The notes below the pieces were generated by a model, which saw only the letters and a list, made by a program, of their open reading frames with translations, had not been told where the DNA came from and made no database searches. The position numbers were made by a program, and so were the translations under genes. This document shows positions 3,896 to 63,841 of a stretch of 64,000 bases of DNA, piece after piece (within the stretch, counting starts at the first letter, position 1; every line of letters begins with the position of its first letter). The stretch comes from a virus, in IMG/VR virus record IMGVR_UViG_3300003775_000074; one strand, 5' to 3'.

Positions 3896-4495
3896 ATGAC
3901 CATGACCTTTGACGACCTACTCGGTGGCGCCGAACCAACGCCTTCGCGATCCAAGCTGAGCGCCAATAAGGAGGCCATCAGCAAGGGCGTTTCGATCCCT
4001 TGGTTGGGGGTACACTTCAACAAGACCCGCAAGGCAGTCATGGAGGCTTTGCGCGATTGCGAGCCTATTGGAAACGGGAAGGGTGGCGGCGCGGTCTACG
4101 ATCTCGCTGAAGCCGCATCATATCTCGTGACGCCTCGGCGCGAGCTTCGCGATCTTATCCGTTCGCTGACGGCGAAGGATCTCCCGCAGGAACTGCGTGA
4201 GACCTATTGGAACGCTAAAATCAAGGAAGCCAAATACCGGGCGATGGCTGGCGAGCTTTGGCCGACGAACGCGGTCCTTCACAAGCTGGGTGAGACGTTC
4301 AAGACGATCAAACACACGACGCAGTTGTGGGTCGAGACGATCGACGAATCGAAAGGCCTCTCGAACGAACAGCGGATGCTTCTGCGGGAGCTGGTCGATC
4401 AGCTCATGAAGGAGCTGCACGAAGCGCTTGTTGCCAACGCTCAGAATTCGACGACGGAAAGCTTCGTGGCGGAACTCGATGAAGACGATTCGTAA
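3896..4495 (+). CDS. terS: Terminase small subunit (DUF1441-like)
   Basis: HTH-like N-terminus (VYDLAEAA.YL) and coiled C-terminus; overlaps the terL start. Confidence 0.85.
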   Translation: MTMTFDDLLGGAEPTPSRSKLSANKEAISKGVSIPWLGVHFNKTRKAVMEALRDCEPIGNGKGGGAVYDLAEAASYLVTPRRELRDLIRSLTAKDLPQELRETYWNAKIKEAKYRAMAGELWPTNAVLHKLGETFKTIKHTTQLWVETIDESKGLSNEQRMLLRELVDQLMKELHEALVANAQNSTTESFVAELDEDDS

Positions 4496-6593
4496 GGCAG
4501 CCTTTCGTTCGCTCGAAGACATGATCGTCGCCGCATCCGAAATGGTGCGGCCTGCTGAGCGCCTTTCCGTTTCACAGGCGACGACGAAGTACCGCTACCT
4601 CAACAACCCCGGCTCCTATGTCGGCCCCTGGCTGCATAGCAAGACGCCTTACCTCGTCGAGCCCATGGATGAATTGGGTAGCCTCGATTTGACCGGGCTC
4701 GTTTTCGTCGGGCCGGCGCGTACCGGCAAATCCGACATGTTTTTCAACTGGCTTGCCAGTACGGCCATTTGCGACCCTGCCGACATGATGATCGTCCATA
4801 TGACGAAGAATGTCGCACGCGACTGGTCCAACACGCCGCTTGCCCGAATGCTTCGTCATAGTGAAGAGGTCGGTAAGCGCATGGTGCCGGGCCGTCAGAA
4901 CAACAACGTCCATGACAAGCGCTTCAAGAGCGGCATGGAACTGCTGATCAAATGGCCCGTCATCACAGAGCTTTCAGGCAAGACCTTGCCGCGCGTCTGG
5001 TTCGCCGACTATGACCGCATGGAAGACAGCATCGACGGTGAAGGCCCCGCCTTCGATCTCGGGCGTAAACGCACCGAGACCTATAAGCGCTTCGGAATGA
5101 CAGTCGCCGAATCCTCCCCTGGCCGCGAGGTTGAGGATGCGAAGTGGGTGCCGCGAACCCTGCACGAAGCGCCGCCCACGAAGGGCATTCTCCAGCTCTA
5201 TAATCGTGGTGATCGGCGCCGCTGGTATTGGCGCTGCCTGCACTGCCGCGCGTCCTTCGAACCTGATTTCAAGCTGTTCAATTACCCGAGCAGTGAGGAT
5301 CTGTGGGAAGCCGCTGAGCTGGTGACCATGAAATGCCCGCACTGCGGTTATGACCACGATCCATCCATGAAGAACGATCTGCAGGAGCTGAATTACAACG
5401 CCCGCTGGATCAAGGATGGAATGATCTGGCATCCAAACGGCGACATCACCGGTAAGCCGATCAAGACCGATATCGGGTCCTTCTGGATGAAAGGCCCTGC
5501 TGCCGCCTTTCAGGACTGGCAATCGCTCGTCTTCAACTTCTTGCAGGCGTCGAAGGCTTATGAGGACACGGGTGACGAGGAGCCGCTTCGGAAGACGATC
5601 ACTGCCGATCAGGGTAACCCTTATGTGCCGAAGGCGACGCAGTCGAACCGGCTGCCTGAACAGTTGCGCGATCGAGCGCAGAATTGGGGTGGCTCAAAGG
5701 AAGACCCGGTCGTGCCGGCAGGCGTCCGATTCCTGATCGCTACGATCGACGTGCAAAAGAACGCCTTCGTTGTGCAGGTTCACGGCCTGGCGCTTGGCGG
5801 CGACGTCTATTTGGTCGACATGTTCAAAATCAGAAAGTCGGAACGACTGGATGAAGATGGCGAGCGTCATCAGCTCGATCCTGCTTCCTATGCGGAAGAT
5901 TGGCACCTTCTCGTCGACAAGGTGATTGAACGCACCTATCCGCTGTCCGATGAAAGCGGTCGCCGCATGTCGATCAAGATGACGGGGTGCGACTCGGGCG
6001 GTGAAGCCGGCGTGACGCCTAATGCTTACGCCTTCTGGCGATGGCTGCGTGATGAGCACGAGGCGGGGCATCATCGTCGATTCCAACTCGTGAAGGGTGA
6101 GCCGTCGAAGTCCGCTCCGCGTATTCGGCTGAGCTATCCAGATAGCCAGAAGAAGGATCGCCATTCGGGCGCACGCGGTGACGTGCCGGTCCTCTTCATC
6201 AACTCGAACATCCTCAAGGATCAGATTGCCGGCATGATCGGCCGCACCGAGGCAACTGAAAGCGCGAGCAATCTCGCGGGCATGGTCAATTTCCCGGTTT
6301 GGGCTGAGAACTGGCTTTACACTCAGCTCACCGCGGAAATTCGAACGGCGAAAGGATGGGAAAATCCGCGCAAAAAGCGCAACGAGGCCTTCGACCTTCT
6401 TGCTTACTGCATCGCTCTTTGCCTCATGCCCGAAATCCGACTGGAAAAAATCGACTGGCTGAGTCCTCCCATTTGGGCGGATGAGTGGGAACGAAACGTC
6501 TTGGTCTTCAATCCTGTGACGCAGAACTTGCCGATCACAGCCAAGCCCGCAGTGAAGCGTGATCTGCGGAAGCTTGCGGAAGCTTTGACTTAG
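4479..6593 (+). CDS. terL: Terminase large subunit, lambda gpA family
   Basis: Walker A GPARTGKS, ESSP, Zn knuckles (CLHC, CPHC) and nuclease TIDVQ, DSGG and NEAFDL motifs. Start placed at ATG 4479. Confidence 0.95.
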   Translation: MKTIRKAAFRSLEDMIVAASEMVRPAERLSVSQATTKYRYLNNPGSYVGPWLHSKTPYLVEPMDELGSLDLTGLVFVGPARTGKSDMFFNWLASTAICDPADMMIVHMTKNVARDWSNTPLARMLRHSEEVGKRMVPGRQNNNVHDKRFKSGMELLIKWPVITELSGKTLPRVWFADYDRMEDSIDGEGPAFDLGRKRTETYKRFGMTVAESSPGREVEDAKWVPRTLHEAPPTKGILQLYNRGDRRRWYWRCLHCRASFEPDFKLFNYPSSEDLWEAAELVTMKCPHCGYDHDPSMKNDLQELNYNARWIKDGMIWHPNGDITGKPIKTDIGSFWMKGPAAAFQDWQSLVFNFLQASKAYEDTGDEEPLRKTITADQGNPYVPKATQSNRLPEQLRDRAQNWGGSKEDPVVPAGVRFLIATIDVQKNAFVVQVHGLALGGDVYLVDMFKIRKSERLDEDGERHQLDPASYAEDWHLLVDKVIERTYPLSDESGRRMSIKMTGCDSGGEAGVTPNAYAFWRWLRDEHEAGHHRRFQLVKGEPSKSAPRIRLSYPDSQKKDRHSGARGDVPVLFINSNILKDQIAGMIGRTEATESASNLAGMVNFPVWAENWLYTQLTAEIRTAKGWENPRKKRNEAFDLLAYCIALCLMPEIRLEKIDWLSPPIWADEWERNVLVFNPVTQNLPITAKPAVKRDLRKLAEALT

Positions 6594-6673
6594 AAATCAA
6601 CATAATGTTGCATTTGATCGGGTAAGAGGATATTCCTCGCCGATCGGAATGTTTCGATCGGCGGCGGGCTCGT

Positions 6674-6883
6674 ATGACGGATCAAGAGCGACTGGCAGCG
6701 GCGGAAACGGCTTACCATAGGCTGATGACCGGCACCTCTGTTCAGGAGGTCGTGGATCAGAATGGTGAGCGCGTTCGCTATGCGCCGGCCAATGCCTTCC
6801 GTCTTGCCACCTACATTGCCGAGCTGAAAGCGCTTCTCGGCCTGACCAAGAGTTCTGGTCCCATGAGGTTTTGGGGCCGATGA
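6674..6883 (+). CDS. Head-tail joining protein, gpW family
   Basis: LAAAETAYHRLMTG.SV.EV.DQNGERVRY...L..YIAEL lies between terL and portal, as in lambda. Confidence 0.9.
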   Translation: MTDQERLAAAETAYHRLMTGTSVQEVVDQNGERVRYAPANAFRLATYIAELKALLGLTKSSGPMRFWGR

Positions 6884-8628
6884 CCTGGCTTGATCCCCAA
6901 ACAATGGCATTGCTCGGCGATCCGCCTCCGTCGAGTAATTCTCCCGCGCCTGACGGTTCCAGGGCTTCTCCGTCAGGCGCGGGTCGAGAGATGTCGATCG
7001 CAGGTGACGCCTATGAAGGCGCCAGCCATTTCAGCCGCGAGATGGCTATGTGGCAGCCGCCGATGCGGTCGGCCGACAACGACATCCTGCCTCAAAAGCG
7101 CACGGCGGATAGCCGAGTGCGCGACACGCTCCGCAACGACTCTTATGTCCGAGGCGGCGCGACGCTGCACAAGGACAACATTGTCGGCGGCATGTTCATG
7201 CTCAATTCCAAACCGGCATCAAAGGTGCTGCTTGGAAAGCAGGACGATGTTTTCGAGGAGGAGTTTCAGGAGGAAACGGAGACCCGCTTCACCCTTTGGG
7301 CGGAATCGCCCGACAATTGGGTGGATGCGCAGCGCGTCAATACCTTCACTGGACTCGTTCGCCTCGCGGTCGGCGTTCATACGGCTGCCGGCGAAGTGTT
7401 GGCCGCGGTAGAGTGGTTGCGCGATTGGGAAAGCTTGCGCCCGTTTAACACTGCCATCCAGTTCGTCGATCTCGATCGCCTTTCCACGCCGCCAGATCTG
7501 AGCGGCAACCGCAACGTGCGCGGCGGCGTTGAGCGCAACAAGTTCGGCGCTCCGCAGGCCTATCACGTCCGCATGGCCCATCCGACCGACTACATGACGC
7601 CGGATGCCTGGACCTGGAAGCGGGTGCCCGTTCGCAAGCCGTGGGGTCGGCTGCAGATGATCCATCTCTACGAGACGGAGCGTCCCGACCAGACCCGCGG
7701 CATTTCCGAGATGGTGACGGCGCTCAAGGAGATGCGTCAGACCAAGGACTTCCGCGAGATCGTCTTGCAGAACGCCGTGGTCAACGCGACCTATGCGGCC
7801 TCGATCGAATCCGATCTCGACACCGACGCAATTTTTACGCGTCTCGGCGGCGGGAACGTCGGCGAAGAAGAGCTGGATAAAGCGGTTCAGGGATACATGA
7901 GCGCCTATTTGGGCGCGGTGTCGGAATACATCGGCGATCGGAAGCAGTTTCAGATCGGCGGCGTCCGCATCCCTCATCTGCCGCCCGGTTCGAAACTCCA
8001 GCTTCGCCCCGCTGGTCAAGGCGGCCCGCTCGGCACCGAGTTCGAACAGTCGCTGCTCCGCTACATCGCGGCGACGCTCGGTGTTTCCTACGAGCAGCTT
8101 TCCCGCGACTACACCCGCACGAACTATTCCAGCGCTCGCGCCGCGATGACCGAGACCTGGAAGTTCATGCAGGCCCGCAAGAAGATGATGGCCGATCGCT
8201 TCGCGACGATCGTCTATCGGCTGTGGCTGGAAGAGGCGCTGAACAAGGGCATCATCACGAGCCTCCCGCGCAAGTTCGCATCGCGAAATGACACCTCGTG
8301 GCTCTACGAGAGTCAGAACTTCGACGCCATCGCCGCTTGCGATTGGATCGGCGCCAGCCGTGGTCAGATTGACGAGCTGAAAGAGACGCAGGCTGCGGTT
8401 CTGCGCCTCAAATACAACCTCTCGACCCATGAGGACGAGTTGGCTCGACTCGGCAAGGACTATCGCCAGTCGTTCCGCCAGAAGGCGCGCGAGACGGTGA
8501 GGCAGAAGGATCTCGGTATCGAGCCGAGCGAAGAGGCTCAGAGCATCAAGGCCGTCTCGGGCTCACCGCAGCAGCGACAGGCCAAGGATGAAAAGAACGA
8601 CGGCTCCGAGGACAACACCGATGAATAA
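6880..8628 (+). CDS. Portal protein, lambda gpB family
   Basis: RP.QTRGIS, LG.SYEQLSRDY...NYSSARA and IDELKE motifs; ATGA overlap with gpW. Confidence 0.95.
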   Translation: MTWLDPQTMALLGDPPPSSNSPAPDGSRASPSGAGREMSIAGDAYEGASHFSREMAMWQPPMRSADNDILPQKRTADSRVRDTLRNDSYVRGGATLHKDNIVGGMFMLNSKPASKVLLGKQDDVFEEEFQEETETRFTLWAESPDNWVDAQRVNTFTGLVRLAVGVHTAAGEVLAAVEWLRDWESLRPFNTAIQFVDLDRLSTPPDLSGNRNVRGGVERNKFGAPQAYHVRMAHPTDYMTPDAWTWKRVPVRKPWGRLQMIHLYETERPDQTRGISEMVTALKEMRQTKDFREIVLQNAVVNATYAASIESDLDTDAIFTRLGGGNVGEEELDKAVQGYMSAYLGAVSEYIGDRKQFQIGGVRIPHLPPGSKLQLRPAGQGGPLGTEFEQSLLRYIAATLGVSYEQLSRDYTRTNYSSARAAMTETWKFMQARKKMMADRFATIVYRLWLEEALNKGIITSLPRKFASRNDTSWLYESQNFDAIAACDWIGASRGQIDELKETQAAVLRLKYNLSTHEDELARLGKDYRQSFRQKARETVRQKDLGIEPSEEAQSIKAVSGSPQQRQAKDEKNDGSEDNTDE

Positions 8629-9922
8629 TCGCTTCGCGGCCCTCTTCGCCGACAACGAACCGAGCCTGGTCGCGCCCGAGAAGCAGGGCGCTTTCGAGTC
8701 GTGCCTGCATCAGGCGAACGCCATTCAGACCCGTCTCGATGCGGATATGTCTGCGCCGCACATGATCGACGACTTCTGGTTCGCGGACACCGACTGGCGA
8801 TCAGCCTACCGGCCTTACATCGTGCGCGACGGCATCTTGCAGATCCCCGTCAAGGGTGTGCTGCTGCACGACTTTCCGTGGCAGTTCGGATCGTTTGCGA
8901 CCGGTTACGACTACATCTGGCGTGCGTTCAAGCGCGGCCACGAGGACGGGAATGTTCGCGGCGTCGCCTTCGTCGAGGACTCGCCGGGCGGCATGGTCGC
9001 CGGCTGCTTCGACCTGGTCGACCGTGTTCACGCTTTCCCGAACCGGAAGCCCCTACGCGCCTTTGCGCAGGAGAGCGCCTATTCCGCCGCTTACGCGGTG
9101 GCGTCCGTCGCTGACAGCATCACCGTCTCGCGCACTGGCGGCGTCGGCTCGATCGGCGTGGTCACCGCACATGTCGATGTCAGCAAAATGATGGATGAGG
9201 CGGGCTTCAAGATCACCTTCATCCACTTCGGCAAACACAAGGTGGATGGCAATCCTTACGAGGCGCTGAAGCCCGAGGTGAAGGAACGAATCCAGGCTCG
9301 CATTGACGAGCTTGGCGAGGTTTTCGTGTCGAGTGTGGCACGAAATCGCGGCATGGAGGCCGACGACATTCGGGCAACCGAAGCGCTGACCTTCACTGCC
9401 ACTCAAGCAGTGTCGAATGGGTTGGCCGATTCCATCGGCTCGCTTGACGACGCCATTGCGACGTTTGTCGCAGACCTGTCCCTAGACGAAGGAGACGAAC
9501 AGATGTCCAACCAGGACAAGTCCACGGCGGTCGATCAGGCCGCCCACGAAGCCGGCGTGACCACTGCCCGCGCGGAAGGCCGCAACGAAGGTCTGAAGGC
9601 CGGTGCGGTCGCCGAGCGCGAGCGTATCAATGCCATCATCGGCAGCGACGAGGGCAAGGCCCGTCCGAAGGCGGCGCTCTCGGCCGCGCTCAAGACCGAC
9701 ATGACCGTCGAGCAGGCCAAGGCCTTCCTCGGCGATCTTTCCGAGGAGAAGGCTTCGACCACGGAGACGGCGGCGCCCAAGGGCCAGTCCCCCTTCGAGA
9801 CTGCCATGGGGAAGACGGACAACCCCAATGTCGGCGCCGCTGCGCAGGGCGAGGAAGAGCGTTCCGAGGTGCCCCGCCATGAACGGGCGCTGCAGCTCGC
9901 GGGGAAGACCAAGCGCGCCTGA
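8621..9922 (+). CDS. Head maturation protease S49 with C-terminal scaffold (lambda gpC/Nu3-like)
   Basis: DSPGG, AYSAAYA.AS, GSIGV and G..K motifs; C-terminal ER.RI.AI scaffold region. Confidence 0.92.
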   Translation: MNNRFAALFADNEPSLVAPEKQGAFESCLHQANAIQTRLDADMSAPHMIDDFWFADTDWRSAYRPYIVRDGILQIPVKGVLLHDFPWQFGSFATGYDYIWRAFKRGHEDGNVRGVAFVEDSPGGMVAGCFDLVDRVHAFPNRKPLRAFAQESAYSAAYAVASVADSITVSRTGGVGSIGVVTAHVDVSKMMDEAGFKITFIHFGKHKVDGNPYEALKPEVKERIQARIDELGEVFVSSVARNRGMEADDIRATEALTFTATQAVSNGLADSIGSLDDAIATFVADLSLDEGDEQMSNQDKSTAVDQAAHEAGVTTARAEGRNEGLKAGAVAERERINAIIGSDEGKARPKAALSAALKTDMTVEQAKAFLGDLSEEKASTTETAAPKGQSPFETAMGKTDNPNVGAAAQGEEERSEVPRHERALQLAGKTKRA

Positions 9923-11625: not shown

Positions 11626-11991
11626 ATGAGCAAGGTCAAGGCATACGCGATCCATACGATCCATCGGCGCGACGACGCCGGCAAGCCCGTGGTGGTGCCC
11701 GCGTCGGTTCTCAATCAGCCGTCCGTCTTCTCCGTCGACCAGGAGGAATTCGATCGCCTGGAGAAGCTGAACGCGGTTCGGAAGGCCACCAAGGAGGAGA
11801 TCGCCGTTGCGAACGAACAGGCGAAGCGTGCTGGCAATGCCCCCGTGGACGAGCCGCCCGCCGCCGACGATTCCAACGCGGCGAAGACCCCCGCCAAGAT
11901 GCCGGCTTCCGGCGCCCAGGGTGATCCCGCGGGTGCACCGAAGGGCGCGGCCAAGAAGTCCGAAGCGTCGGACGACGGCCTCGGCGTCTGA
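11626..11991 (+). CDS. Small capsid-associated/packaging protein with low-complexity tail ending DDGLGV
   Basis: RBS GAAAGG; gpFI-like position after the capsid gene. Confidence 0.7.
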   Translation: MSKVKAYAIHTIHRRDDAGKPVVVPASVLNQPSVFSVDQEEFDRLEKLNAVRKATKEEIAVANEQAKRAGNAPVDEPPAADDSNAAKTPAKMPASGAQGDPAGAPKGAAKKSEASDDGLGV

Positions 11992-32053: not shown

Positions 32054-32287
32054 TCAACCTCTGTTGACTCCGCGAGTCAGGAGCTGTCGCTGCGCTTCGA
32101 GCCGCGACGGCGGCGCGCACTTCGAGCAGTGATGGGAAAAGGAGCCATCGCCGCCCGGTTTGATGGTCCAGCCATCGTTGCGCGCTCGCGCGATCATCTC
32201 ATTGAAATCGCGCCGATCGACCCGGTCGAATAGGTCATCGCAGCCGTCGCACAGGAGGGTGCTCTGTTTGCCGTAGTTCTCGATCAT
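32054..32287 (-). CDS. Small Zn-finger protein (CDGC...CSKC)
   Basis: Start at the ATGA overlap with the methyltransferase stop codon. Confidence 0.7.
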   Translation of the reverse strand: MIENYGKQSTLLCDGCDDLFDRVDRRDFNEMIARARNDGWTIKPGGDGSFSHHCSKCAPPSRLEAQRQLLTRGVNRG

Positions 32288-33579
32288 CCAAGCAGATCCT
32301 CGAACGAAATTCGACATTGTGTTGAATTATCAGGCGCAGCTTCACCCAGCAGATCCGAGAAGAGTGTACTCGCTGGATGCGTCAGATTGAGCCTACGCCT
32401 GATATCGGCCGCATATTCGGCCTCCATCTCGATCAGGACGGCCCGCATGCCTTCCGCGAGCGCCGCTGCTCCGGTCGTGCCACTCCCGGCGAAGGGATCG
32501 AGCACAAGGCCGCCTGGTGGCGTGACGTGGCGGATGAGCGCCTGGTTGAGAGATACCGGCTTCACGGTCGGATGGCGTGAGCCGGCGCGGTCCAGCTTGT
32601 TGGCCTTTGCGCGGTAGAAGACGGGCTCACCGTCGAACGGATAGCTCTCGAAGAAGCGCGCCGCCGATCCCTCATCGCCGAAGCCCGTCATCGCCGTGCC
32701 GGGGGCTCGACTTTCGGCGCCGTAACAGGCGCCGTCGTTCTGACCCTTGCGCATTACGCCGGGCTTGCCGCTCTTGGTGTAAGGGAATAGGGCCTCAACG
32801 TCGGGAGAGCCGTCCAGAATTAGATTGGCAGGATATCGCTCGCCGGCACGACATCCGTCGATGTTCACTGCTCCGACGCCATGCTTCAGGATGTTGGCTG
32901 CGCCATTGGGTTCCGAGAACGGCTTTTGGCCAACGTAGATAGGTTCTAGCGCCGGCTTGCGGGCCTGACCGCCATACGCCCATCCCTGCCACTGCGCAGC
33001 CTCGGGCGTGGCCGGCTCATACGTGCCCGGTTGGTAGACCCGATCTTCGAGCTTTTCCCAGGAGCCGTCCTTGTGTTGGTCAGCGCCGGGGCGAATGCGA
33101 CGGACGGGCTCACCAGTGGCGTTCACTGCACCCTTGGCACCTAACTGCTTGTCGATCGCCATTGCGGCATTGTGTGCCTTCGGGAAACCCGAGCCGAACA
33201 CCCATCCGATCATGGGATGGGTGACGAAGCCCGCGGCCTCGATCGCGACCGCCATATGGTGATAGGTGCGGCTCGACGAGAACGCGACGATATAGGCGCC
33301 GGGCTTCATCACGTTGTAGACGAGCTGCCAGAACTCAGGATCACGCTCGATGGCGGTGCCGTCCCATTGCTTGCCCATGAAGCCGCGCGACTGGCGTGCG
33401 AAGGCGCCGTCACGGCCATGCTTCGCTGCCTTCGACCCATCCTTGCCGAAGCGCTTGGTGACGCTCACGAGGCCATAAGGTGGATCGGTGAAGACGGAAT
33501 CCACCAGCTCACCGCGCTCGGCCATCTCGCGCAGCACAACTCGATTATCGCCTTCGTAGAGTTTGACGGACATGGTCAT
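32284..33579 (-). CDS. DNA amino-methyltransferase (N6-A/N4-C, beta class)
   Basis: TDPPY catalytic motif near the N-terminus; HPTVKP and LDPFAGSGTTG SAM-binding motif near the C-terminus. Confidence 0.92.
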   Translation of the reverse strand: MTMSVKLYEGDNRVVLREMAERGELVDSVFTDPPYGLVSVTKRFGKDGSKAAKHGRDGAFARQSRGFMGKQWDGTAIERDPEFWQLVYNVMKPGAYIVAFSSSRTYHHMAVAIEAAGFVTHPMIGWVFGSGFPKAHNAAMAIDKQLGAKGAVNATGEPVRRIRPGADQHKDGSWEKLEDRVYQPGTYEPATPEAAQWQGWAYGGQARKPALEPIYVGQKPFSEPNGAANILKHGVGAVNIDGCRAGERYPANLILDGSPDVEALFPYTKSGKPGVMRKGQNDGACYGAESRAPGTAMTGFGDEGSAARFFESYPFDGEPVFYRAKANKLDRAGSRHPTVKPVSLNQALIRHVTPPGGLVLDPFAGSGTTGAAALAEGMRAVLIEMEAEYAADIRRRLNLTHPASTLFSDLLGEAAPDNSTQCRISFEDLLG

Positions 33580-33854
33580 CCCAACAGGTCGTCGAATGCA
33601 TCACGCGGGGCGGCGGCCGGTTCAGCTTGCCGGGCTCGCTGTTTGCGCGCACGCGGCGCTGGCTCTTCACCGGGCTTGCCGGTCAGAGCCAGCATGACGG
33701 CGCAGACGGGGTCGCGGTGAGCGCGTATCGAGCCGTCAGAGCGTTTGACTCCCCGGTAGGCGACCTCGAATCCCTTTTCAGTGCAGGCGATCGAGAGATA
33801 GTTCAGCTCGCCCTTGGCCGCGGTCTCGCGCAGCAATTCGTCGAGCGTCTTCAT
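33576..33854 (-). CDS. Small protein ending FDDLLG
   Basis: ATGA-coupled on both sides. Confidence 0.75.
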   Translation of the reverse strand: MKTLDELLRETAAKGELNYLSIACTEKGFEVAYRGVKRSDGSIRAHRDPVCAVMLALTGKPGEEPAPRARKQRARQAEPAAAPRDAFDDLLG

Positions 33855-34081
33855 CCAAGCAGATCCTCGAACTCGTCGGCGGCCTTCACCTTGGCGCGAA
33901 CGGGTGCGCCACGCTGCGGCTCGAAGTTCTTCTGATACCAGGCGCGAGCCCGTTCCTCGGCTTCAGCCGCCGTAGCGCCAGTGAAGATCAGGCGCTCCTT
34001 CTCGTTGACGAGTGGTCGCGACAGGAACTCCGGTCCTTCGCCGCTGACGCGCTGGTAGACTCCGATTTCCAAGGCTTTCAT
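33851..34081 (-). CDS. Small protein ending FEDLLG
   Basis: ATGA-coupled on both sides. Confidence 0.75.
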   Translation of the reverse strand: MKALEIGVYQRVSGEGPEFLSRPLVNEKERLIFTGATAAEAEERARAWYQKNFEPQRGAPVRAKVKAADEFEDLLG

Positions 34082-34314
34082 CCGAGCAAATCCGCAAATT
34101 GCGAGGCCACCGGCTCAGGCGGCTTCTCGATGTAGCTGTGACCGTTGATGGCCAGTTCGAGCACCGCTTCCGGCGTGGCGCCGAAGCCGACGCCGTGAAG
34201 CTTGGTCTTTCGATAGGCATAGCAATGCCAGCCGCCGTGCGTGCCCTGCGCCAAAATGCCGATGCGCAGCTTCTCGTGGCGTGCTCGATCGAACAGGGTA
34301 TCGAGCGACGTCAT
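34078..34314 (-). CDS. Small protein ending FADLLG
   Basis: ATGA-coupled on both sides. Confidence 0.75.
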   Translation of the reverse strand: MTSLDTLFDRARHEKLRIGILAQGTHGGWHCYAYRKTKLHGVGFGATPEAVLELAINGHSYIEKPPEPVASQFADLLG

Positions 34315-34544
34315 CCGAGCAGATCCTCGAAAATGCGCTCAGCCAATTGGTTGAGAGCAATCTTGGCCGGCGCGTGAACGACGGGGGCGGGCTTACCGAG
34401 CGCTTCCCAAAGGAGGAAAGCTGCCTTGCGATCCCAACTCGCATCCCTCAGCGGGAGACCGTTCGACAGCGCCCCGACCTCATCCCCGACCGAACGCAGT
34501 CGCTCGGGAAATTCAGTCTCGAAGAAGCGCTCGAAATCAGTCAT
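34311..34544 (-). CDS. Small protein ending FEDLLG
   Basis: Coupled to the GapR-like gene and to the downstream gene. Confidence 0.75.
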   Translation of the reverse strand: MTDFERFFETEFPERLRSVGDEVGALSNGLPLRDASWDRKAAFLLWEALGKPAPVVHAPAKIALNQLAERIFEDLLG

Positions 34545-48988: not shown

Positions 48989-49053
48989 TCTCCGTCCGTT
49001 GTGAGTCTGACTATGAGCGTCCGTGTTGCATTAGTCAACACTATGTTGAGTGT

Positions 49054-49326
49054 TCAGCCCAACAAATCGGCGAACTGCGGGGCGACGGTTGCAGCTCGTT
49101 CAGCCGCAAGGCGTGCCCTGGCCAAGCGCTTGCGCGCCGCATCATAGGCAGGATTAGCCTTACCCCTCGCCTGCCGATCGAGCTTGGCGCAGGCCACACA
49201 TCGGGCGTTGGCCGTATAGCGTGGCGAGCCGGGATGCGCCTCACACTGCAGGCCCCAATAAAGGCGACTGCCTTGCGAGCGCGCCTCTAGCCGTGTGTGC
49301 GGCAGGGTGGCGTTTGCATGTTCCAT
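49054..49326 (-). CDS. Zn-knuckle protein resembling the N-terminus of the adjacent HNH protein; ends FADLLG
   Basis: Y.G..C....G..RYTAN..CV.C motif shared with 49396..50112; RBS GAGG. Confidence 0.7.
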   Translation of the reverse strand: MEHANATLPHTRLEARSQGSRLYWGLQCEAHPGSPRYTANARCVACAKLDRQARGKANPAYDAARKRLARARLAAERAATVAPQFADLLG

Positions 49327-50725: not shown

Positions 50726-51046
50726 ATGGTTATGGCTGGGAAATCGCGGGAGGCGAGCGTGAGGAAATTCCGAGAGGACCGCCTGTTCATTCAGGAGATG
50801 CGGACGATCCGCAAATGGTTGGCGCGGCAGTCGTCGATCACGATGGTCCAGTTATGGGGAAAAGGGCTCAAGCGAAACCCGCGTGATCTGCAAACTGCGG
50901 AAGCTCAGCGGATCGCGTTCATCCTCACCAAGAAGCTCGGATGGGAGAAAAGCGGCTCTCGCATTGTCGATGCCAAAGGGTGCCGGCATTGGGAGTACCG
51001 GCCCAAGCCACCGATCGTCGCCATTTACGAAGATCTGCTCGGCTGA
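50726..51046 (+). CDS. Basic winged-helix-like protein ending YEDLLG
   Basis: A.RIA.IL...LGWEK.......G.R.WEY.P recalls the C-terminal DNA-binding module of VapE-type primase/helicases. Start uncertain. Confidence 0.6.
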   Translation: MVMAGKSREASVRKFREDRLFIQEMRTIRKWLARQSSITMVQLWGKGLKRNPRDLQTAEAQRIAFILTKKLGWEKSGSRIVDAKGCRHWEYRPKPPIVAIYEDLLG

Positions 51047-51468: not shown

Positions 51469-51777
51469 TCAATGCGATCCATATCGAGCGACGATCTCGC
51501 CCAGCGTCAATTCCCGCTCCCGCGGCCCCGCACGGTTACACGAGATCACGTCGATCGCTTGCGTGTAGAGGCGGGAAACCTGCTCTGCGGATAGCGTCCA
51601 CGAGACACTTACGACCGTTGCCGTTGGGCGATCGAGTTCGCGGATCGCTTCCAACACGGCGTCTACCTCATCCAGGAAGCTCATCCACATCGGCTTCCCT
51701 TCGAACATCGTGTTCTCTGGATGACCGGCTTTGCGGCAGAGCGCTCGGGCCGCCAGTTCGCGCGGGGATTTGGTCAC
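51469..51777 (-). CDS. Hypothetical protein, paralogue A
   Basis: Same N-terminus; GTG start overlapping the upstream stop. Confidence 0.75.
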   Translation of the reverse strand: MTKSPRELAARALCRKAGHPENTMFEGKPMWMSFLDEVDAVLEAIRELDRPTATVVSVSWTLSAEQVSRLYTQAIDVISCNRAGPRERELTLGEIVARYGSH

Positions 51778-53729: not shown

Positions 53730-53754
53730 AAATGATTAGTCAACACTATGTTGA

Positions 53755-56232
53755 TTAATGAAGCAGATCATCGTACTCGTCGGACGGTGGATCGGGCAGA
53801 TCGTCCGGCCATTCCAACTCAGAACCGATCCACACTTCGAACGCTCGGCGGCACGTTTCCAGCATCGGGAACTGATAGGTGCGCGGGCGCGCGCCGCCAC
53901 CGCCGCTGTTCGGCCGCGTCTCGCGGACCTCGGGACACATTGCCCGCAGATGCTTGCCGATATCGACGTCGCGCAGCTCCTCACCATCATAGCGGCGCGA
54001 GCGCATCCAGCGGCTATAGGCGTCGCGGAACTCGCGCCGATCGGCGCTGATGGTCTCGCGCGGCCAGTCGCCAGCGCGCTCCTCGTGGAAGCACGGGAAG
54101 TCGGGCTCGCCGCTCTGCAACTGGCCATGCCACCAACGCTCGATATTGCGTAGACCCTGGAGCTTCTGATCGGCCAGGGCAGCCGTATTCGGCACAGCGC
54201 GGACATTGAAATCCGACAGGTCGTAGTTCTGCAGATAGTGCAAGAGCGCTTCCCGGCCGCCGTTCAACATCTCCTGGCGGATCGCGTCGAAATAGGCGTC
54301 GCGCGTCTCGTCGTCGCTGCGCTTGCGGCTGAAGCGCGGATCAACGTCGAGGACAAAATACCGGCGCTCATCTTCGGAGGCCGGCACCACCCATTTTTCG
54401 TTCGACGACATGAACAGCCGCAGGACGCTCTTGACGTGGAAGCCGTTCAGACCCTTCGGCTCGATCAGCACCTTCTCCGAGGTGATGAGGTGCTTCAGCA
54501 TGCCTTCGGCCTGTTTATTGCCGGCCCAAAACCCTTCCTCGACATGGAGCATCAGACACTTTTCCTGGTGCGCGTTGAAGCGGCCGACCATATGCTCCTG
54601 ATTGGCGATCTTGACGTGATGGTGCGGAAACAGGCCGCCGACATAGTCGCCGATCGTGTCCTTGCCGGTGCCCTTCTCGCCACGCAGCACCACGGCAACG
54701 CCCGGCTTTTCCCACGGCTTCTGGATCATGTGAGCGAGCCAGCCGACGAAATAGGTGTTGGCCGTCTCGTCGCCGCGGCAGATGATCGCTCTGATGTGCT
54801 TGAGGATCAGCTTGCAGGAGCCGCGCTTGCTCGGCTCGACGGCGAAGCCGCGCCAGTGGTTATAGGCCCCCTCGACATCCTCGCCCGGCGCGAACACGAC
54901 GCCGTTCGGGTATTCGCGCCGGGCTTTGTGCCGTAGCCACGCCTTCGTCAGGGGCTCAGTGGCCTTTTCCGTCGCGACGCGATCGTTCTCGTAGAAGTTG
55001 TGGAGATCGCCGACCGTACCATAGCTGACCGAGCCGTCCTTGTTCTCGGTGACTATCACCGTCTTGCCGTTGATGAAGGCGACGGCGTGTTTCTTGTTGA
55101 TGCGCGCGACTTTGGGCGGGACGAACCCTAGCTTCTGTTCGACGTCGGCCTTGTTCAGTTTCTGCTGGCGTTTCGTGACCTCCTTGCGAGGCGCAGCCGA
55201 TAAGCCCAGCAGATCGTCGATGATGGAGTTGTCGCCTTCGGGCTCATCCTCCTCGCCGATATCCGGCATGTCGCCGAGATCGTCGAACTCGTCTTCCAGA
55301 TTGTCGAATTCAGCTTCAAGCCGTAGCTCGCGCACTTCCGCCTGGATCGACCGCATCGTGCGATGGCGTCGGCTCTCCTTGTTCTTGAAGGAGAAGAACT
55401 TGTAGCGGCAGGTGCGATCGTCATGCTTCTTCGAGCGCGCAGACCAGGCGCGGAAGACCTCGAAGATCGCTTTCCGCTCTTCCTCCTCGCGACCGAAGGC
55501 CTCGTGCTGCACCGAGGCCATGACGTTCAACCACTCGTCATAGTCCAGATCGTCGTTCGGGATTTCGTCGAGCAGTTCGCGGATCTCATCTACGGAGAGC
55601 CCGAGCGGTTGTTGCTTTTCAGGATCGAGCGCGTCTTCGTCGTCGGCTCCAATCAGTTCCTCAATCGTCTCGGCCGGCACAAAGGGGCCGATTCCGAGTT
55701 CGAGAGCGCTGAAATCGAAGCGTTTGGTCCAGATATAAGGGCGGCCAGTGTCAGGATGGATAGAGGGCGGCAGAGCGACTTGCTTGCCCGTGCCGAACAG
55801 CTCGATCTCCCAGGCCCAATGCTTCGTGCCGTCCGGTCCTTCGATCTTCTCAGCGCTGTGCGCGAGCTTGGTCGAGGGGAAGTGCTTGTCGCTCAGGAAA
55901 TAGATGTGCCGGCTTTCGCCACCCGAGCCCGAGGCGACAGTTGGCATCTCTTTCCAGCCGGGAAATAGTTCGCCGAGCTTCGCGCGCGCTTCGCCGGCCA
56001 GCTTCCGATCGCGAATGTCGAGATCGAGCGCATGCAGAAAGCCGCCGCCAACCTTCGACCATTGGCCGAGCCGAACGCCCAGGTTCTCGCCATCACGATA
56101 GATGCGCTTGAGCTGGTCGAACGACAGAAAAGGCTTCGTGCTCCAATCGTCGCCGATGGGACGCTTGGACTTGGGATGGAGACGATGAATAGCGAACCCG
56201 GCGTCAACCAGGTGTCTTACAGTGTCGAGCAT
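53755..56232 (-). CDS. Bifunctional primase-polymerase / PriCT-2 / SF3 helicase
   Basis: L.P.SKRP, LDLD, H.YF and ALPPS.HP primase motifs; YDEWL.V helical domain; G.KGTGKD Walker A, VEE and SNE helicase motifs. Confidence 0.92.
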   Translation of the reverse strand: MLDTVRHLVDAGFAIHRLHPKSKRPIGDDWSTKPFLSFDQLKRIYRDGENLGVRLGQWSKVGGGFLHALDLDIRDRKLAGEARAKLGELFPGWKEMPTVASGSGGESRHIYFLSDKHFPSTKLAHSAEKIEGPDGTKHWAWEIELFGTGKQVALPPSIHPDTGRPYIWTKRFDFSALELGIGPFVPAETIEELIGADDEDALDPEKQQPLGLSVDEIRELLDEIPNDDLDYDEWLNVMASVQHEAFGREEEERKAIFEVFRAWSARSKKHDDRTCRYKFFSFKNKESRRHRTMRSIQAEVRELRLEAEFDNLEDEFDDLGDMPDIGEEDEPEGDNSIIDDLLGLSAAPRKEVTKRQQKLNKADVEQKLGFVPPKVARINKKHAVAFINGKTVIVTENKDGSVSYGTVGDLHNFYENDRVATEKATEPLTKAWLRHKARREYPNGVVFAPGEDVEGAYNHWRGFAVEPSKRGSCKLILKHIRAIICRGDETANTYFVGWLAHMIQKPWEKPGVAVVLRGEKGTGKDTIGDYVGGLFPHHHVKIANQEHMVGRFNAHQEKCLMLHVEEGFWAGNKQAEGMLKHLITSEKVLIEPKGLNGFHVKSVLRLFMSSNEKWVVPASEDERRYFVLDVDPRFSRKRSDDETRDAYFDAIRQEMLNGGREALLHYLQNYDLSDFNVRAVPNTAALADQKLQGLRNIERWWHGQLQSGEPDFPCFHEERAGDWPRETISADRREFRDAYSRWMRSRRYDGEELRDVDIGKHLRAMCPEVRETRPNSGGGGARPRTYQFPMLETCRRAFEVWIGSELEWPDDLPDPPSDEYDDLLH

Positions 56233-56276: not shown

Positions 56277-56609
56277 TCAGCGCGGCAGAAAGTCCCAAAA
56301 ATCCGCCTGAGTCACCGGCTTGAAGCCCTCGGGCGGGTTGCTCTGATTCCGCGACATCTCGACGATTCGGTCGACGCGATTGGTCGAAATCAGGTTCTGA
56401 CGGCCCGGTTTGAACCACTTGTAGACGCCTTGATAGGTCATCTCCAGCGCTTCGGCGAGCTTGTGCAGATTCGCGACGCCGTGCTCCTGATCGACGAGAT
56501 CGGGGAGGGCGCGCGTGATGAGATCGTGCAGGGGGCCACGGCTCTCACGCTTGTATCGAGCGTTGCGCGGTCGATCCGCATCCCCGAGCAAATTGTCTGT
56601 GTCGGTCAC
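56277..56609 (-). CDS. Cro-like HTH regulator (110 aa), candidate binder of the 15-bp palindrome
   Basis: RBS AGGAG and GTG start; HTH NLHKLAEALEMTYQGVYKWF; no S24 peptidase domain; divergent promoter contains a strong palindrome copy at 56659. Confidence 0.75.
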   Translation of the reverse strand: MTDTDNLLGDADRPRNARYKRESRGPLHDLITRALPDLVDQEHGVANLHKLAEALEMTYQGVYKWFKPGRQNLISTNRVDRIVEMSRNQSNPPEGFKPVTQADFWDFLPR

Positions 56610-56754: not shown

Positions 56755-57273
56755 ATGGCCCTCGAAGACCTTTTGACCCGCAACAACGAACTGCTGGCGG
56801 AACACAATGATCTGCTGAAGCAGGTGCTCGCCAAGGCCGGCGCCGGCAAGGCCGCTGCATCGAACGACGGCGACGCCGGCAAGGATGATCCCAAGACGAC
56901 CCGCACGCGCAAACCGAAGGACAACGATGCCGGCGCGGCTTCCGGCCCGAGCTTCGACACGCTCAAGAAGGACCTGACGGCCTGGCTCGGCGAGTTCGCC
57001 AAGGAGTCCGACAAGGAGAACCCTGACGGCGTCCATCCCGAGGTGACGGCCCGCAAGGACGCCCTCGCGAAGGTGTTCAAGAACGACAAGCTCAAGATCG
57101 GCAAGCTGCCCGAGATCGAGAACGATGCCGAGAAGATCGGCATCCTGCACAAGTGGCTGCACGAGACCGCCAAGAAGGCCGACAAGGGCCATGGCATCGG
57201 CCGTCTCGCCGCCGATCCGGTCTCGTCGATCGACGAGGGTGGCGAGGATGACGACGACGGTCTCGGCGTCTGA
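56755..57273 (+). CDS. Replication-operon protein ending DDDDGLGV
   Basis: RBS GGAG; coiled N-terminus, Ala/Lys linker, acidic tail. Confidence 0.8.
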   Translation: MALEDLLTRNNELLAEHNDLLKQVLAKAGAGKAAASNDGDAGKDDPKTTRTRKPKDNDAGAASGPSFDTLKKDLTAWLGEFAKESDKENPDGVHPEVTARKDALAKVFKNDKLKIGKLPEIENDAEKIGILHKWLHETAKKADKGHGIGRLAADPVSSIDEGGEDDDDGLGV

Positions 57274-58848: not shown

Positions 58849-59583
58849 ATGGCTGAGGCCAAAAAGGACGAAATCGGAATCATCATGCTCAAGGCGGTTC
58901 GGCTGTCTTTTGCCGACACCCTCTTTGTCGCCGAGGCCGGCGACCGCAGGAAGAAGGGAAAGCACGCTGGTAAGATCCCCTTCCGCAACAGCATCAACCT
59001 TCTGCTGCCCGACAAGGACAGTGCTGAAGGCAAGGCTATGGAGAAGGCGATCAAGGCCAAAATGGTCGAGGCGCGCGATGCTCAGTGGCCGACCGACCCG
59101 CCCAAGATCAAGGGTGAGAAGCTGGCGATGCGCGACGGCGACGAGGAGGAATGGGCCGGTTATGCCGGGCGCTACTACGTCTCGGCCAGCCGCACGAGCT
59201 ATGGGCCGAAGGATGGGGAGGAGTCGCAGCGCCCGAAGCGCCCGTTCCGCATCATCGGCCCCCGCAAGGTCAGGCAGTCGGATGGCGCCATGCGCTTCCC
59301 CGACGTCGAGGAGGGTGAGCGCGACGCCCCGTATTCCGGCTGCTACGTCAACGCCAAGGTGCGCTTTTGGGCGCAGGACGACGAGGAGTACGGCAAGCGC
59401 ATCAACTGCTCGATCGAGGCCGTCCAGTTCGCCAAGGACGGCGAGGCGTTCGGTGGCGGCGCCCGCACCAATGTCGATGACGAGTTCGAGGACGAGGAAG
59501 GCGATGGCCTCGACGACGATGATCTCGATGTCGGCGGCGGATCGTCCAAGAAGGACGATGATGACGACGGTCTCGGCATCTGA
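58849..59583 (+). CDS. DUF2815 single-stranded DNA-binding protein
   Basis: VRLSF...F, LRDGD and YSGCYVNA.V.FWAQD.EYGKRINC...AVQF.KDGEAFGG motifs; acidic tail ending GLGI. Confidence 0.92.
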   Translation: MAEAKKDEIGIIMLKAVRLSFADTLFVAEAGDRRKKGKHAGKIPFRNSINLLLPDKDSAEGKAMEKAIKAKMVEARDAQWPTDPPKIKGEKLAMRDGDEEEWAGYAGRYYVSASRTSYGPKDGEESQRPKRPFRIIGPRKVRQSDGAMRFPDVEEGERDAPYSGCYVNAKVRFWAQDDEEYGKRINCSIEAVQFAKDGEAFGGGARTNVDDEFEDEEGDGLDDDDLDVGGGSSKKDDDDDGLGI

Positions 59584-61788: not shown

Positions 61789-61824
61789 CTTGATAATCAA
61801 CATAGAGTTGATTAAATTATCGCC

Positions 61825-61923
61825 ATGTTCGACGATCCGCTAGGTCTCATTCTACCCTCCATCGTGGCCGTCACGTATATCGCGTGGGGAGCGCATTGGC
61901 TGCTGGGCAGAGTCAAAAAGTGA
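61825..61923 (+). CDS. 32-aa single-TM peptide, not in ORF track
   Basis: MFDDPLGLILPSIVAVTYIAWGAHWLLGRVKK; its stop overlaps the GTG of the next gene (GTGA); starts 13 nt after a palindrome. Confidence 0.45.
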   Translation: MFDDPLGLILPSIVAVTYIAWGAHWLLGRVKK

Positions 61924-62660
61924 GGTTTTTTGTCGGGTTACATCAGCCGTCTGATGCGGCGCATTTCAATCACGCCTTCATTTCAGTAAATCGCATTCGG
62001 AAGCGCATAAAGCCAATTGCAGCAAAATCGTGGATAATGGATAGCGGTGCGTTTACGACTATCTTGACACATGGCGGATATCCTGAAGGCGTCGAATTCT
62101 ATGCTGACCAAATAAAGCGGTGGTCAACTCATGGAAATTTACTCGCCGCTGTGGCACAAGACTACATGTGCGAGGCGCATATGCTGGCGCTCACAGGCAA
62201 GACGATTGAGGAGCATCAGCGCCTGACAATCGAGCGTTACGACGCTTTAATCACTTGCGACACTGGTGGCGTGTACATCATGCCAGTTCTGCAAGGGTAT
62301 TCGCCTGTTGACTACGTGCGCCATATCGAAATGTACGGTGATCGGCTGGCTCATGGCGCTTGGGTCGGTGTCGGAAGTGTCTGTAAACGGAATGGCGATC
62401 CATCGGCGATCGAAGAGGTGCTCACCGCGATTAAGACTGCCCGGCCTGATCTACTCTTACATGGCTTCGGTCTGAAAACGACCGCGCTGGCGTCAGATAT
62501 TGTTCGAAATCTTTTATGGACGGCCGACTCAATGGCTTGGTCATTTGCTGCGCGCAAACAAGGGCGAAACGCTAACGATTGGCGGGAAGCAAAACGGTGG
62601 GAAATGAAAATACTCCGGGTGTCTCCTTTCGAGTTGATAATCAACTCTATGTTGATTTAG
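61920..62660 (+). CDS. TGT-fold protein, putative deazaguanine DNA transglycosylase (DpdA-like)
   Basis: MDSGAF, QDY.C, PVLQG, HGFG and ADSMAW occur in the order of the TGT barrel motifs. Confidence 0.7.
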   Translation: MRFFVGLHQPSDAAHFNHAFISVNRIRKRIKPIAAKSWIMDSGAFTTILTHGGYPEGVEFYADQIKRWSTHGNLLAAVAQDYMCEAHMLALTGKTIEEHQRLTIERYDALITCDTGGVYIMPVLQGYSPVDYVRHIEMYGDRLAHGAWVGVGSVCKRNGDPSAIEEVLTAIKTARPDLLLHGFGLKTTALASDIVRNLLWTADSMAWSFAARKQGRNANDWREAKRWEMKILRVSPFELIINSMLI

Positions 62661-62668
62661 AGTGACGT

Positions 62669-63841
62669 ATGACCGCTTGGTACAACGAGATCGACCCGTT
62701 CGCTGCCGCATGGTTGCGCGAGCTTATAGCCGAAGGCCATATCGCGCCCGGCGTTGTCGACGAACGGAGCATTCTGGATGTTCGACCTTCTGACCTCCGA
62801 GGTTTCACCCAATGCCATTTCTTCGCCGGCATCGGTGTTTGGAGCTACGCTGCCCGCCTCGCTGGCTGGCCTGACGACCGCCCTCTCTGGACCGGAAGCT
62901 GCCCGTGCCAACCTTTCTCCTCGGCAGGCCAAGGCGGCGGGTTTGATGACGAGCGGCACCTATGGCCATTCTGGCACTATCTCATCGAGATCGAGCGCCC
63001 TTCAGTCGTCTTTGGCGAGCAGGTTGCGAGTAAAGACGGACTTGCTTGGCTCGACCTTGTTCAAGCTGACATGGAAGGAACGCGTTACGCCGCAGGGGCT
63101 CTCGATACCTGCTCTGCGGGGAGTGGCGCGCCGCACATCCGCCAACGCCTCCGCTTTGCCGCAACAGAGCTGGAATACGCCTCGGGCAACGAATGGCTCG
63201 AAAGGTGGACCAAATCAGGCGAATGGCGCCCTCTCGGCGGATGTCGCGCTGACGAGTTGGGTCACCACCACCACCAGGGACTGGAAGGATTCGGGCGCGG
63301 ACATCAAACCGAGATCGGACGGATCGGAGCGGCTGGATCAACTTCCTCGACAGGCGAACTTGGCAGGATGGCCATCGCCGAAGAAGGCAGACGATCAGGG
63401 AGGAGCGGACACGCGACGGGACAATGGGCGGCCGAATTCGGACTTGGTGACGATGGGCGCTTTAACCGGCTGGCCCACGACGACGACGACGGATGCGCTG
63501 CGTCATCCGGACCGGGAATTCACGACGCCGAACATCACGCTCAATCACGCGGCTTTGCGGGCAGATGGGCCGGCCCGACTAACGGCCTCTGGCGAGATGT
63601 TGACTGGCTTTTCTGCCGGGATGGAAAGTGGCGGCCAGTTGAACCCGGCACATTCCCGCTGGCTCATGGGGCTGCCGCCCGCGTGGGACGTCTGCGCGGT
63701 TATGGCAATGCAGTCGATGCCGAAGCGACGCGCGTCTTCATCGAAGCGTTCCTCGAAGCCGAGGCGGCAAGTTTCCAGCCCCTACGCCAGATTGATTCAG
63801 TCGCTGCTGACGTGACCCCGTTCGCAGAACTCCTCGGGTGA
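62669..63841 (+). CDS. C5 cytosine DNA methyltransferase, alpha polypeptide
   Basis: FFAGIG, GSCPCQPFS, EQV, HIRQRL and final RLRGYGNAV motifs; motif IX is absent from this frame. Confidence 0.9.
   Translation: MTAWYNEIDPFAAAWLRELIAEGHIAPGVVDERSILDVRPSDLRGFTQCHFFAGIGVWSYAARLAGWPDDRPLWTGSCPCQPFSSAGQGGGFDDERHLWPFWHYLIEIERPSVVFGEQVASKDGLAWLDLVQADMEGTRYAAGALDTCSAGSGAPHIRQRLRFAATELEYASGNEWLERWTKSGEWRPLGGCRADELGHHHHQGLEGFGRGHQTEIGRIGAAGSTSSTGELGRMAIAEEGRRSGRSGHATGQWAAEFGLGDDGRFNRLAHDDDDGCAASSGPGIHDAEHHAQSRGFAGRWAGPTNGLWRDVDWLFCRDGKWRPVEPGTFPLAHGAAARVGRLRGYGNAVDAEATRVFIEAFLEAEAASFQPLRQIDSVAADVTPFAELLG
62946..63815 (+). CDS. Overlapping alternative-frame beta polypeptide of the C5 methyltransferase
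   Basis: The +1 frame carries four W-[PNV]-[TS]-[PT] repeats and GQLNPAHSRWLMGLP..W (motif IX-like). Start uncertain (frame open from 62754). Confidence 0.75.
   Translation: MTSGTYGHSGTISSRSSALQSSLASRLRVKTDLLGSTLFKLTWKERVTPQGLSIPALRGVARRTSANASALPQQSWNTPRATNGSKGGPNQANGALSADVALTSWVTTTTRDWKDSGADIKPRSDGSERLDQLPRQANLAGWPSPKKADDQGGADTRRDNGRPNSDLVTMGALTGWPTTTTTDALRHPDREFTTPNITLNHAALRADGPARLTASGEMLTGFSAGMESGGQLNPAHSRWLMGLPPAWDVCAVMAMQSMPKRRASSSKRSSKPRRQVSSPYARLIQSLLT

Follow-up and report, generated by a model that had tools for sequence, protein, structure and literature searches.

Short peptides shared by otherwise unrelated proteins organise the replisomes of phages T4 and T7, the bacterial sliding-clamp and SSB interactomes (SSB being the protein that binds single-stranded DNA), and the loading of capsids. 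The T7 tails are long acidic runs ending in Phe and are carried by two proteins only, and the capsid-targeting sequences of T4 (IPI-III, Alt), which are short and terminal, direct unrelated proteins to the prohead and have a link to its protease. The known clients of the clamp or of PCNA include methylases, ligases, exonucleases, integrases or transposases and, in T4, terminase coupling; degrons of the ssrA type act from the C-terminus. The acidic tails of T7 have been found to dock on the T7 DNA polymerase, and in the crystal of the Enc34 SSB the acidic tail is found in a neighbouring molecule's concave sheet (PMC5686142). This work concerns a hexapeptide, here called the LLG motif, that recurs between positions 3,896 and 63,841 of a viral DNA of 64,000 nucleotides, IMG/VR record IMGVR_UViG_3300003775_000074 (the window hereafter, meaning the whole stretch that was analysed). 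It differs in sequence and in carrier set from the known shared docking peptides, and our literature search found no published description of it, as an earlier note made from the letters of this DNA alone had also supposed.

The explanation we favour, with somewhat more confidence than doubt, is that the hexapeptide is a short linear docking motif, placed on unrelated proteins and read by one common partner. Its general form would be hydrophobic-x-[D/E]-[L/I/V/M]-[L/F/M]-G, appearing as F-x-D-L-L-G in the window phage; it would sit on disordered ends and linkers, probably as one capped helical turn, and its partner would be encoded by the phage or at least conserved together with the lambda-type head module.

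The window is a nearly complete genome, of about 60% GC, of a temperate siphophage that is lambda-like and whose host group is the alphaproteobacteria. Its TerL (4479-6593) has the gpA ATPase and nuclease domains, its protease or scaffold (8621-9922) is of the S49 (gpC) type, the major capsid protein is encoded at 10465-11547, and there is also a gpD-like decoration protein. The replication module is of the Enc34 or 'Nazgul-like' kind, with a Prim-Pol/D5 primase, a DUF2800 Cas4-like nuclease, a gp2.5/Enc34-type SSB and a family A polymerase (59716-61788). Among database phages, two Casjensviridae come nearest, Rhizobium phage RHph_X2_30 and Rhodobacter phage RcCWillis (polymerase identity 53-57%); nearer still, and the closest relative that was found, is a Bosea vestrisii prophage (78%). 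Comparisons were made with a set of 45 genomes or loci that share the polymerase and with about 60 further loci retrieved via the capsid protein.

The LLG motif and its carriers

Eight proteins of the window have [FY]-x-[DE]-L-L-G as their C-terminus, and the primase ends in YDDLLH. From composition, 0.0004 such ends would be expected, and none of 2000 shuffles yielded even one. The string [DE]LL[GH] occurs 12 times in the 84 called proteins, and all 12 occurrences are copies of the motif. The carriers are at least a dozen otherwise unrelated proteins, each with the motif in a linker or at a disordered end. They comprise two DNA methylases, the primase-helicase, TerS, the portal leader, a helix-turn-helix (HTH) protein and six small proteins without annotated function, for which scans against Pfam and PHROGs gave none. 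Every motif position that the earlier note had listed was recovered. Lengths are given below in amino acids (aa).

3896..4495, + strand: TerS; N-terminal MTMTFDDLLGG, motif at 3908-3925; PF07278 from residue 37
6880..8628, + strand: portal; weaker copy TMALLG at 6901-6918 in the N-terminal leader
32284..33573, - strand: N6/N4 DNA methyltransferase, 429 aa; PF01555, E 2.5e-25; C-terminal FEDLLG at 32287-32304
33576..33854, - strand: 92-aa protein; C-terminal FDDLLG at 33579-33596; no PHROG or Pfam match
33851..34081, - strand: 76-aa protein; C-terminal FEDLLG at 33854-33871
34078..34314, - strand: 78-aa protein; C-terminal FADLLG at 34081-34098
34311..34544, - strand: 77-aa protein; C-terminal FEDLLG at 34314-34331
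49054..49326, - strand: 90-aa protein; C-terminal FADLLG at 49057-49074; PHROG matches weak
50759..51046, + strand: 95-aa protein (start at 50690 or 50759, uncertain); C-terminal YEDLLG at 51026-51043
53755..56232, - strand: Prim-Pol / D5-type primase-helicase, 825 aa; PF09250, PF08707, PF19263; C-terminal YDDLLH at 53758-53775
56277..56609, - strand: HTH protein upstream of the primase; weaker N-terminal copy TDNLLG at 56583-56600
62669..63841, + strand: C5 cytosine methyltransferase-like protein, 390 aa; weak PF00145 match; C-terminal FAELLG at 63821-63838

The N6 methylase has a second copy, FSDLLG (32344-32361, -), 19 residues before its C-terminal end, and the interdomain linker of the primase holds IDDLLG (55204-55221, -) together with the motif-like EFDDLGD and IEELIGA. 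TerS is laid out as an N-terminal tag, a P/S-rich linker and a DNA-binding domain. The 20 residues that precede the tails have a P/A fraction of 0.31, against 0.16 for the proteome, and few hydrophobic residues, which is the usual setting of short linear motifs. Paralogy of the carriers was considered and rejected: their bodies have no significant similarity to one another, as the earlier note had it. On the C5 methylase itself, the PF00145 match spans 46 residues only, and the codon-usage score of its gene (62669-63841, +) is very low for the length, as it is in the orthologues of four relatives.

The check on orthologues that the earlier note had proposed turned out in favour of the motif, with the tag retained in the C5 methylase, the N6 methylase, the 92-aa protein (33576-33854), the 90-aa protein (49054-49326), the N-terminus of TerS and the primase linker. 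Orthologues of the C5 methylase end in IQDLLG, FEDLLG, FDEVLG, FEALLG, FEDVLG, YSDLLG or LDGLIV, and those of the N6 methylase in MFKEILG (L075) and NETLLV (RcCWillis). The orthologue of the 92-aa protein in L075, at 42% identity, has the C-terminus GAFDDLLG, and that of the 90-aa protein in the Bosea prophage has DFADLLG. A likely Bosea counterpart of the 95-aa protein, matched by position and local sequence without an alignment, carries MFDDLLG internally, with 24 more residues after it. The N-terminal motif of TerS is present in 17 of the 19 relatives from which TerS was recovered, and the linker motif of the primase in all nine relatives examined; orthologues of the HTH protein begin VTEGIDDILGS, MFHDLLGGS or MAQSDEDLLGI. 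Among the polymerase-anchored relatives the density of the motif per 1000 positions is 7.1 at C-termini, 1.5 at N-termini and 0.35 internally, an enrichment over internal positions of about 20-fold and 4-fold, respectively. Its flavour is shared by the carriers within each genome and differs between phages, being D-L-L-G in the window phage, D-[IV]-L-G in RHph_X2_30 and its group and L-L-[VA] in phages of the Rhodobacter group.

The motif is specific to this phage clade, and the proteome of the proxy host, Bosea vestrisii, does not use it. A comparison with the host had been suggested in the earlier note, and in the 6.4-Mb Bosea genome the motif is confined to prophage genes: F-[DE]-D-x-L-G has three matches, in the prophage TerS, the primase and a small prophage protein, and an in-frame D-L-L-G-stop within plausible genes was likewise found in prophage genes only. 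Equal frequency at host C-termini, which the note would have taken as a refutation, was therefore not observed. The motif is also rare among viruses: a degenerate DNA scan of 2.9 million IMG/VR contigs for F-[DE]-D-L-L-G-stop gave 14 matches, about three of them real gene ends, of which one belongs to a relative.

It may be asked whether the conserved unit is the peptide or the DNA that encodes it. A cause at the DNA level would make the tail a by-product of a reused cassette of Shine-Dalgarno (SD) sequence, spacer and ATGA, which serves translational coupling and offers microhomology for gene shuffling. One part of the window has such an arrangement:

32284..34331, - strand: run of five stop/start junctions (32284, 33576, 33851, 34078, 34311), in which the tail ...GGA TGA includes the next ATG

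The five tandem junctions have ...GAT CTG CTY GGA TGA in common; two of them are identical and three nearly identical over 21 nt, and in three of the five a GAGGA lies 9 nt upstream. This run doubles as a translational-coupling device and, because of the common ...GGATGA and the near-identity over 21 nt, its five tails are not fully independent at the DNA level. However, no start codon overlaps the other four C-terminal copies or those at N-termini and in linkers, and tails are retained in relatives without overlaps; RHph_X2_30 has seven proteins ending in F-x-D-[IV]-L-G(G/E), none of them in an ATGA overlap. Synonymous codons also vary widely. Leu and Gly codons differ among the copies in the window, FEDLLG is encoded three times in L046 and GEFDDILGGD twice in L010 with codons that differ between copies, and in the three VDLSDL of L040 Ser is written as TCA or as AGC. 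Since identical peptides within single genomes use different codons, the selection is on the peptide, which bears out the earlier note; and since the tails also persist without overlaps, the junction exploits the motif and does not create it. A DNA-level origin as the sole cause is largely refuted, and we find this explanation barely credible.

The docking or degron idea of the earlier note is supported in part. Retention in orthologues, selection on the peptide and the lack of kinship among carriers are the behaviour of a docking tag, whereas the restriction to C-termini did not hold. A free carboxylate is not required, because the tag is also found at N-termini and in linkers.

The portal leader and the candidate readers

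The start of the portal gene is most likely ATG 6880, rather than 6991 or TTG 6871. The start at 6880 adds a leader of 37 residues (6880-6990), which aligns by position with the leaders of relatives; a BLASTP alignment of the portal with lambda gpB (37% identity, E 3e-102) begins after both leaders. At the same place the portals of relatives have EFADVLG, DLSDLLG, VDLSDLIG or ELVGG, and the gpB-family portals of the approximately 60 loci almost always have hydrophobic-x-[DE]-L-[VIL]-G in a leader, with the conserved GAYEGA core following after 10-25 residues. In any one genome, the portal copy agrees with those of TerS and the cargo proteins, as in L040 (VDLSDLIG / VDLSDLMG / VDLSDLLV) and in RHph_X2_30, where the portal has EFADVLG alongside FDDIFG and FxD[IV]LG elsewhere. 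In an AlphaFold2 (AF2) model of the portal, built on a 38-sequence alignment, the leader is mostly at pLDDT <50 (residues 1-5, 13-17 and 20-48) with a short helix at residues 6-12. The window portal therefore has what characterises the gpB leader, a disordered N-terminal leader with x-x-L-[LVI]-G before the core.

Lambda gpB starts MKTPTIPTLLGPDG, with TLLG (T8-L9-L10-G11) within its leader. The reference record annotates residues 1-22 as a removed leader, which puts the cleavage 11 residues after TLLG. The position of the motif in the window portal leader is that of TLLG in the lambda gpB leader, which is removed in prohead maturation. The effect of leader removal on interactions is stated to be unknown, the relevant contacts being Nu3-B and C-B (PMC3224144), and a literature search brought up no role for this leader. 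Both the portal-leader motif and LLG-type cargo tails are lacking in Burkholderia phage AH2, a single case that is consistent with the two belonging together. No gene content was associated with the presence or absence of the portal-leader motif, which is nearly universal in the family and for which the automatic classification was noisy. We also observed that lambda gpC/Nu3 (L171 4418-5737) has the C-terminus ...AVNDLLNTPV, with D-L-L three residues from the end of a protein that is processed by the prohead protease; this likeness may be chance.

Across the clade, conservation is highest for three carriers, namely the portal leader, the N-terminus of TerS and the primase linker. Since the first two of these are the oldest and most constant of all, and because there is the lambda precedent, our tentative preference among classes of reader is a component of head assembly or packaging: the S49 protease or scaffold, the inner capsid face, or the gpA-type TerL. 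The enzymes would then carry a copy of the portal's own handle, and would be docked at the packaging vertex, for example to couple methylation to packaging, or loaded into proheads. A more specific and more doubtful version is mimicry of the portal leader. The motif would be the handle with which lambda-type portals engage a site in the assembling prohead or the packaging vertex, and it would have been copied onto TerS, the primase, the methylases and the small early proteins, either for recruitment to the vertex, with methylation or processing coupled to packaging, or as a starter kit loaded into the head and delivered along with the DNA; TerS would take the site that is freed by cleavage of the leader.

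The same genome has a second family of tails, ending in DDGLG[VI]:

11626..11991, + strand: 121-aa protein at the lambda FI position, after the major capsid gene; C-terminal SDDGLGV
56755..57273, + strand: 172-aa conserved protein, first gene of the replication operon; C-terminal DDDDGLGV
58849..59583, + strand: Enc34/gp2.5-type SSB; PF10991, phrog_112; C-terminal DDDDDGLGI

These three tails use nearly the same codons, GAC GAC GGY CTC GGC RTC TGA. Across about 30 genomes the tips of the SSB and the 172-aa protein co-vary and change fast (DLGI, DDDI, DDLL, DDFG, DPLG, DALG, DPFA and DDIG were seen), and the tips of the exonuclease, the primase and the post-capsid protein often change in step with that of the SSB. 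The LLG motif is far more constant and does not follow these switches; TerS, for instance, has FDELLG where the SSB ends in DALG. Since one is constant and the other switches, they are two codes, which probably have two readers. In L046 and L053 both codes coincide as D-L-L-G, and the SSB itself ends in DDLLG. The 172-aa protein is modelled by AF2 as a long N-terminal coiled-coil-like helix, a disordered stretch and a small helical domain, for which Foldseek found no match in the PDB at E <= 0.001 and the search of the Atlas gave unnamed phage clusters only. The DLGI and GLGV tails may resemble encapsulin cargo-loading peptides. In PIN1 and PIN2, which are Chi-like phages, the virion includes the protein from the post-capsid position (PMC12264135, Table 1), to which the 121-aa protein is linked by gene position only.

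The main alternative to a head or packaging reader is a docking tag of the T7 or T4 kind within the replisome, by which the carriers would be tethered to the polymerase, the SSB cleft or the 172-aa protein, the copies on TerS and the portal coupling packaging to replicating DNA. We consider it unlikely, though it is kept alive by the primase linker, the early small proteins and the SSB copies of L046 and L053. In its favour, the primase is a carrier, as are an exonuclease and a ligase in relatives; D-L-[LM]-G is the common end of the SSB, the 172-aa protein, the exonuclease and the primase in L046 and L053; and the polymerase is the sole replication protein that is never tailed. A tail in a neighbour's concave sheet, as in the Enc34 SSB, and tails on a polymerase, as in T7, are ready precedents (PMC5686142). 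But the motif is also found in portal leaders of the lambda family that lack this replication module, lambda included; the window SSB has another tail, DDGLGI; and covariation gave no columns in the polymerase (Pol), the SSB or the primase. The earlier note had named the sliding-clamp peptide of T4 as an analogy; the most conserved carriers point towards head assembly or packaging at least as much as towards a replisome clamp.

It is fair to set out what weighs against a docking motif read by head components. The primase linker and the early small proteins fit a head-assembly reader poorly, and the SSB ending in DDLLG in L046 and L053 fits a replisome reader better. Mass spectrometry of PIN1 and PIN2 virions lists structural proteins and one hypothetical protein, and no replication or modification enzymes, which speaks against bulk encapsidation of the carriers, at least in those two phages (PMC12264135). 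The AF2 model gave no sign that the portal leader docks in cis. Alignment columns that separate the genomes whose SSB tail ends in G were sought and none was found in Pol, the primase, Cas4, the SSB or the HTH protein; the same test gave one weak column in the 172-aa protein. Finally, of the nine tails in the window, five overlap the next gene's start and are constrained by it.

The fate of the lambda leader raises the question of proteolysis, namely that the motif would be a recognition site of the phage's S49 prohead protease, or of a host AAA+ protease, for processing or timed removal. The TLLG-containing gpB leader is indeed cleaved off in maturation, and gpC/Nu3, which are also processed, have the DLL-containing end noted above. 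Cutting at the linker copies would part the domains of the primase or regenerate a DLLG end on the N6 methylase, and RcCWillis has among its carriers an integrase and an AlpA/Xis-like protein, which belong to classes that are often unstable. Yet the annotated lambda cleavage is 11 residues past TLLG and not at it, tails that stop exactly at G leave nothing to cut, and it is difficult to see why the primase and TerS should bear a degron; moreover, a motif that ends in G and is also placed at N-termini and in linkers is unlike the C-terminal degrons of the ssrA type. We regard a proteolysis signal as improbable.

The list of carriers resembles that of the known clamp and PCNA clients, and one could think of a variant clamp-binding motif by which the DNA enzymes of the phage dock on the host beta sliding clamp (DnaN). 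Positions 3-5 of QL[SD]LF resemble the D-L-[LF] core, and two copies read QFADLLG. Several points make this very unlikely: the consensus lacks the Q and is not hydrophobic at position 2, no host protein of the Bosea genome has the motif, it varies in concert between phages whereas the clamp pocket is conserved, and there is no reason for a portal leader to bind a clamp. The prediction for a Bosea vestrisii DnaN dimer with the last 35 residues of the protein encoded at 34078-34314 gave a complex score of 0.07 against a mark of 0.34, which lends no support and, by the rule of the method, is no evidence against binding either. No member of a clamp family was found among the approximately 57 of the 84 window proteins that were scanned against Pfam or PHROGs, and the remaining small open reading frames (ORFs) are too short for a clamp.

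Should the LLG motif be a docking tag, as we favour, the shared partner would give a handle on at least six small proteins without annotated function, and on many more in relatives. For the N-terminal leader of the lambda portal, a puzzle that is decades old, it would also provide a concrete hypothesis, and it would suggest a physical link of DNA modification or replication to packaging, of relevance to the restriction protection of packaged genomes. A portable tag of six residues could, in addition, serve protein targeting in these phage systems.

Other features of the genome

Directly upstream of the run of tailed small genes is a GapR-like nucleoid protein (34544-34882, -; PF10073, E 1.6e-33) with an acidic N-terminal extension of 35 residues; its homologue in a Loktanella phage starts MARNHDDIVGGG. 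A 20-nt element, TCAACATAGTGTTGACTAAT, follows the stops of gene 49054-49326 (at 49034-49053, -) and of the primase (at 53735-53754, -), and a closely similar DNA element lies downstream of the orthologue of gene 49054-49326 in the Bosea prophage. Between the polymerase and the C5 methylase, the gene at 61884-62660 (+) encodes a queuine tRNA-ribosyltransferase or DpdA-like protein (phrog_1279, E 1.5e-65), which suggests 7-deazaguanine modification of the DNA.

The early region has a ParB-like protein (39835-40644, -; phrog_1033, E 1.6e-49). A HerA-like ATPase with a hydrophobic C-terminal end (45165-46331, -; PF05872, E 1.9e-103) is kept in RHph_X2_30 and RcCWillis. The neighbouring small genes at 51106-51402 (-) and 51469-51777 (-) are probably a tandem duplication; the first ten residues of their products, TKSPRELAAR, are identical. 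Three proteins of the GDSL/SGNH esterase family are encoded, at 1137-2294 (-), 29534-30466 (+) and 41947-42633 (+).

Comparison with known docking peptides

Of the systems that use shared terminal peptides, the clamp peptides of T4 gp43, gp33 and gp55 are alike in that several DNA-acting proteins share an acidic and hydrophobic terminal peptide for one hub, and their core, like that of QL[SD]LF, is a similar D-L-[LF]. The differences are that in the window the portal is a carrier and that no clamp gene was found in the scanned proteins. With respect to the bacterial clamp motif (QL[SD]LF or QLxLxL), a Q precedes only two of the 12 copies, and E, D, A or S stands where position 2 would be; in Bosea, both F[DE]DxLG and DLLG-stop are found in prophage genes only and not in host clamp clients.

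The acidic tails of T7 gp2.5 and gp4 are also a terminal peptide common to unrelated proteins, and the window SSB is of the gp2.5/Enc34 type. The LLG tails, however, have one or two acidic residues and end in G, and the motif is placed as well at N-termini, in linkers and on packaging proteins, with at least 13 carriers in all. The counterpart of the T7 tails in the window phage would rather be the DDGLG[VI] family than the LLG motif. The capsid-targeting sequences of T4 are again short terminal peptides on unrelated proteins; these are N-terminal and cleaved at (L/I)-x-E, while the copies in the window are mostly C-terminal. Degrons of the ssrA/ClpX type have a non-polar end such as LAA and need the free carboxylate, unlike the LLG motif, which ends in G and is also N-terminal, internal or in linkers.

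The gpB leader of lambda is the remaining comparison. In both phages a disordered leader precedes the conserved core and has x-x-L-L-G near its residue 10, and the head module of the window phage is of the lambda type throughout (gpA TerL, S49 protease, gpD-like decoration protein). In lambda, the portal alone is known to carry the motif, whereas here it is found also on TerS, the primase, the methylases and the small proteins, mostly at their C-termini.

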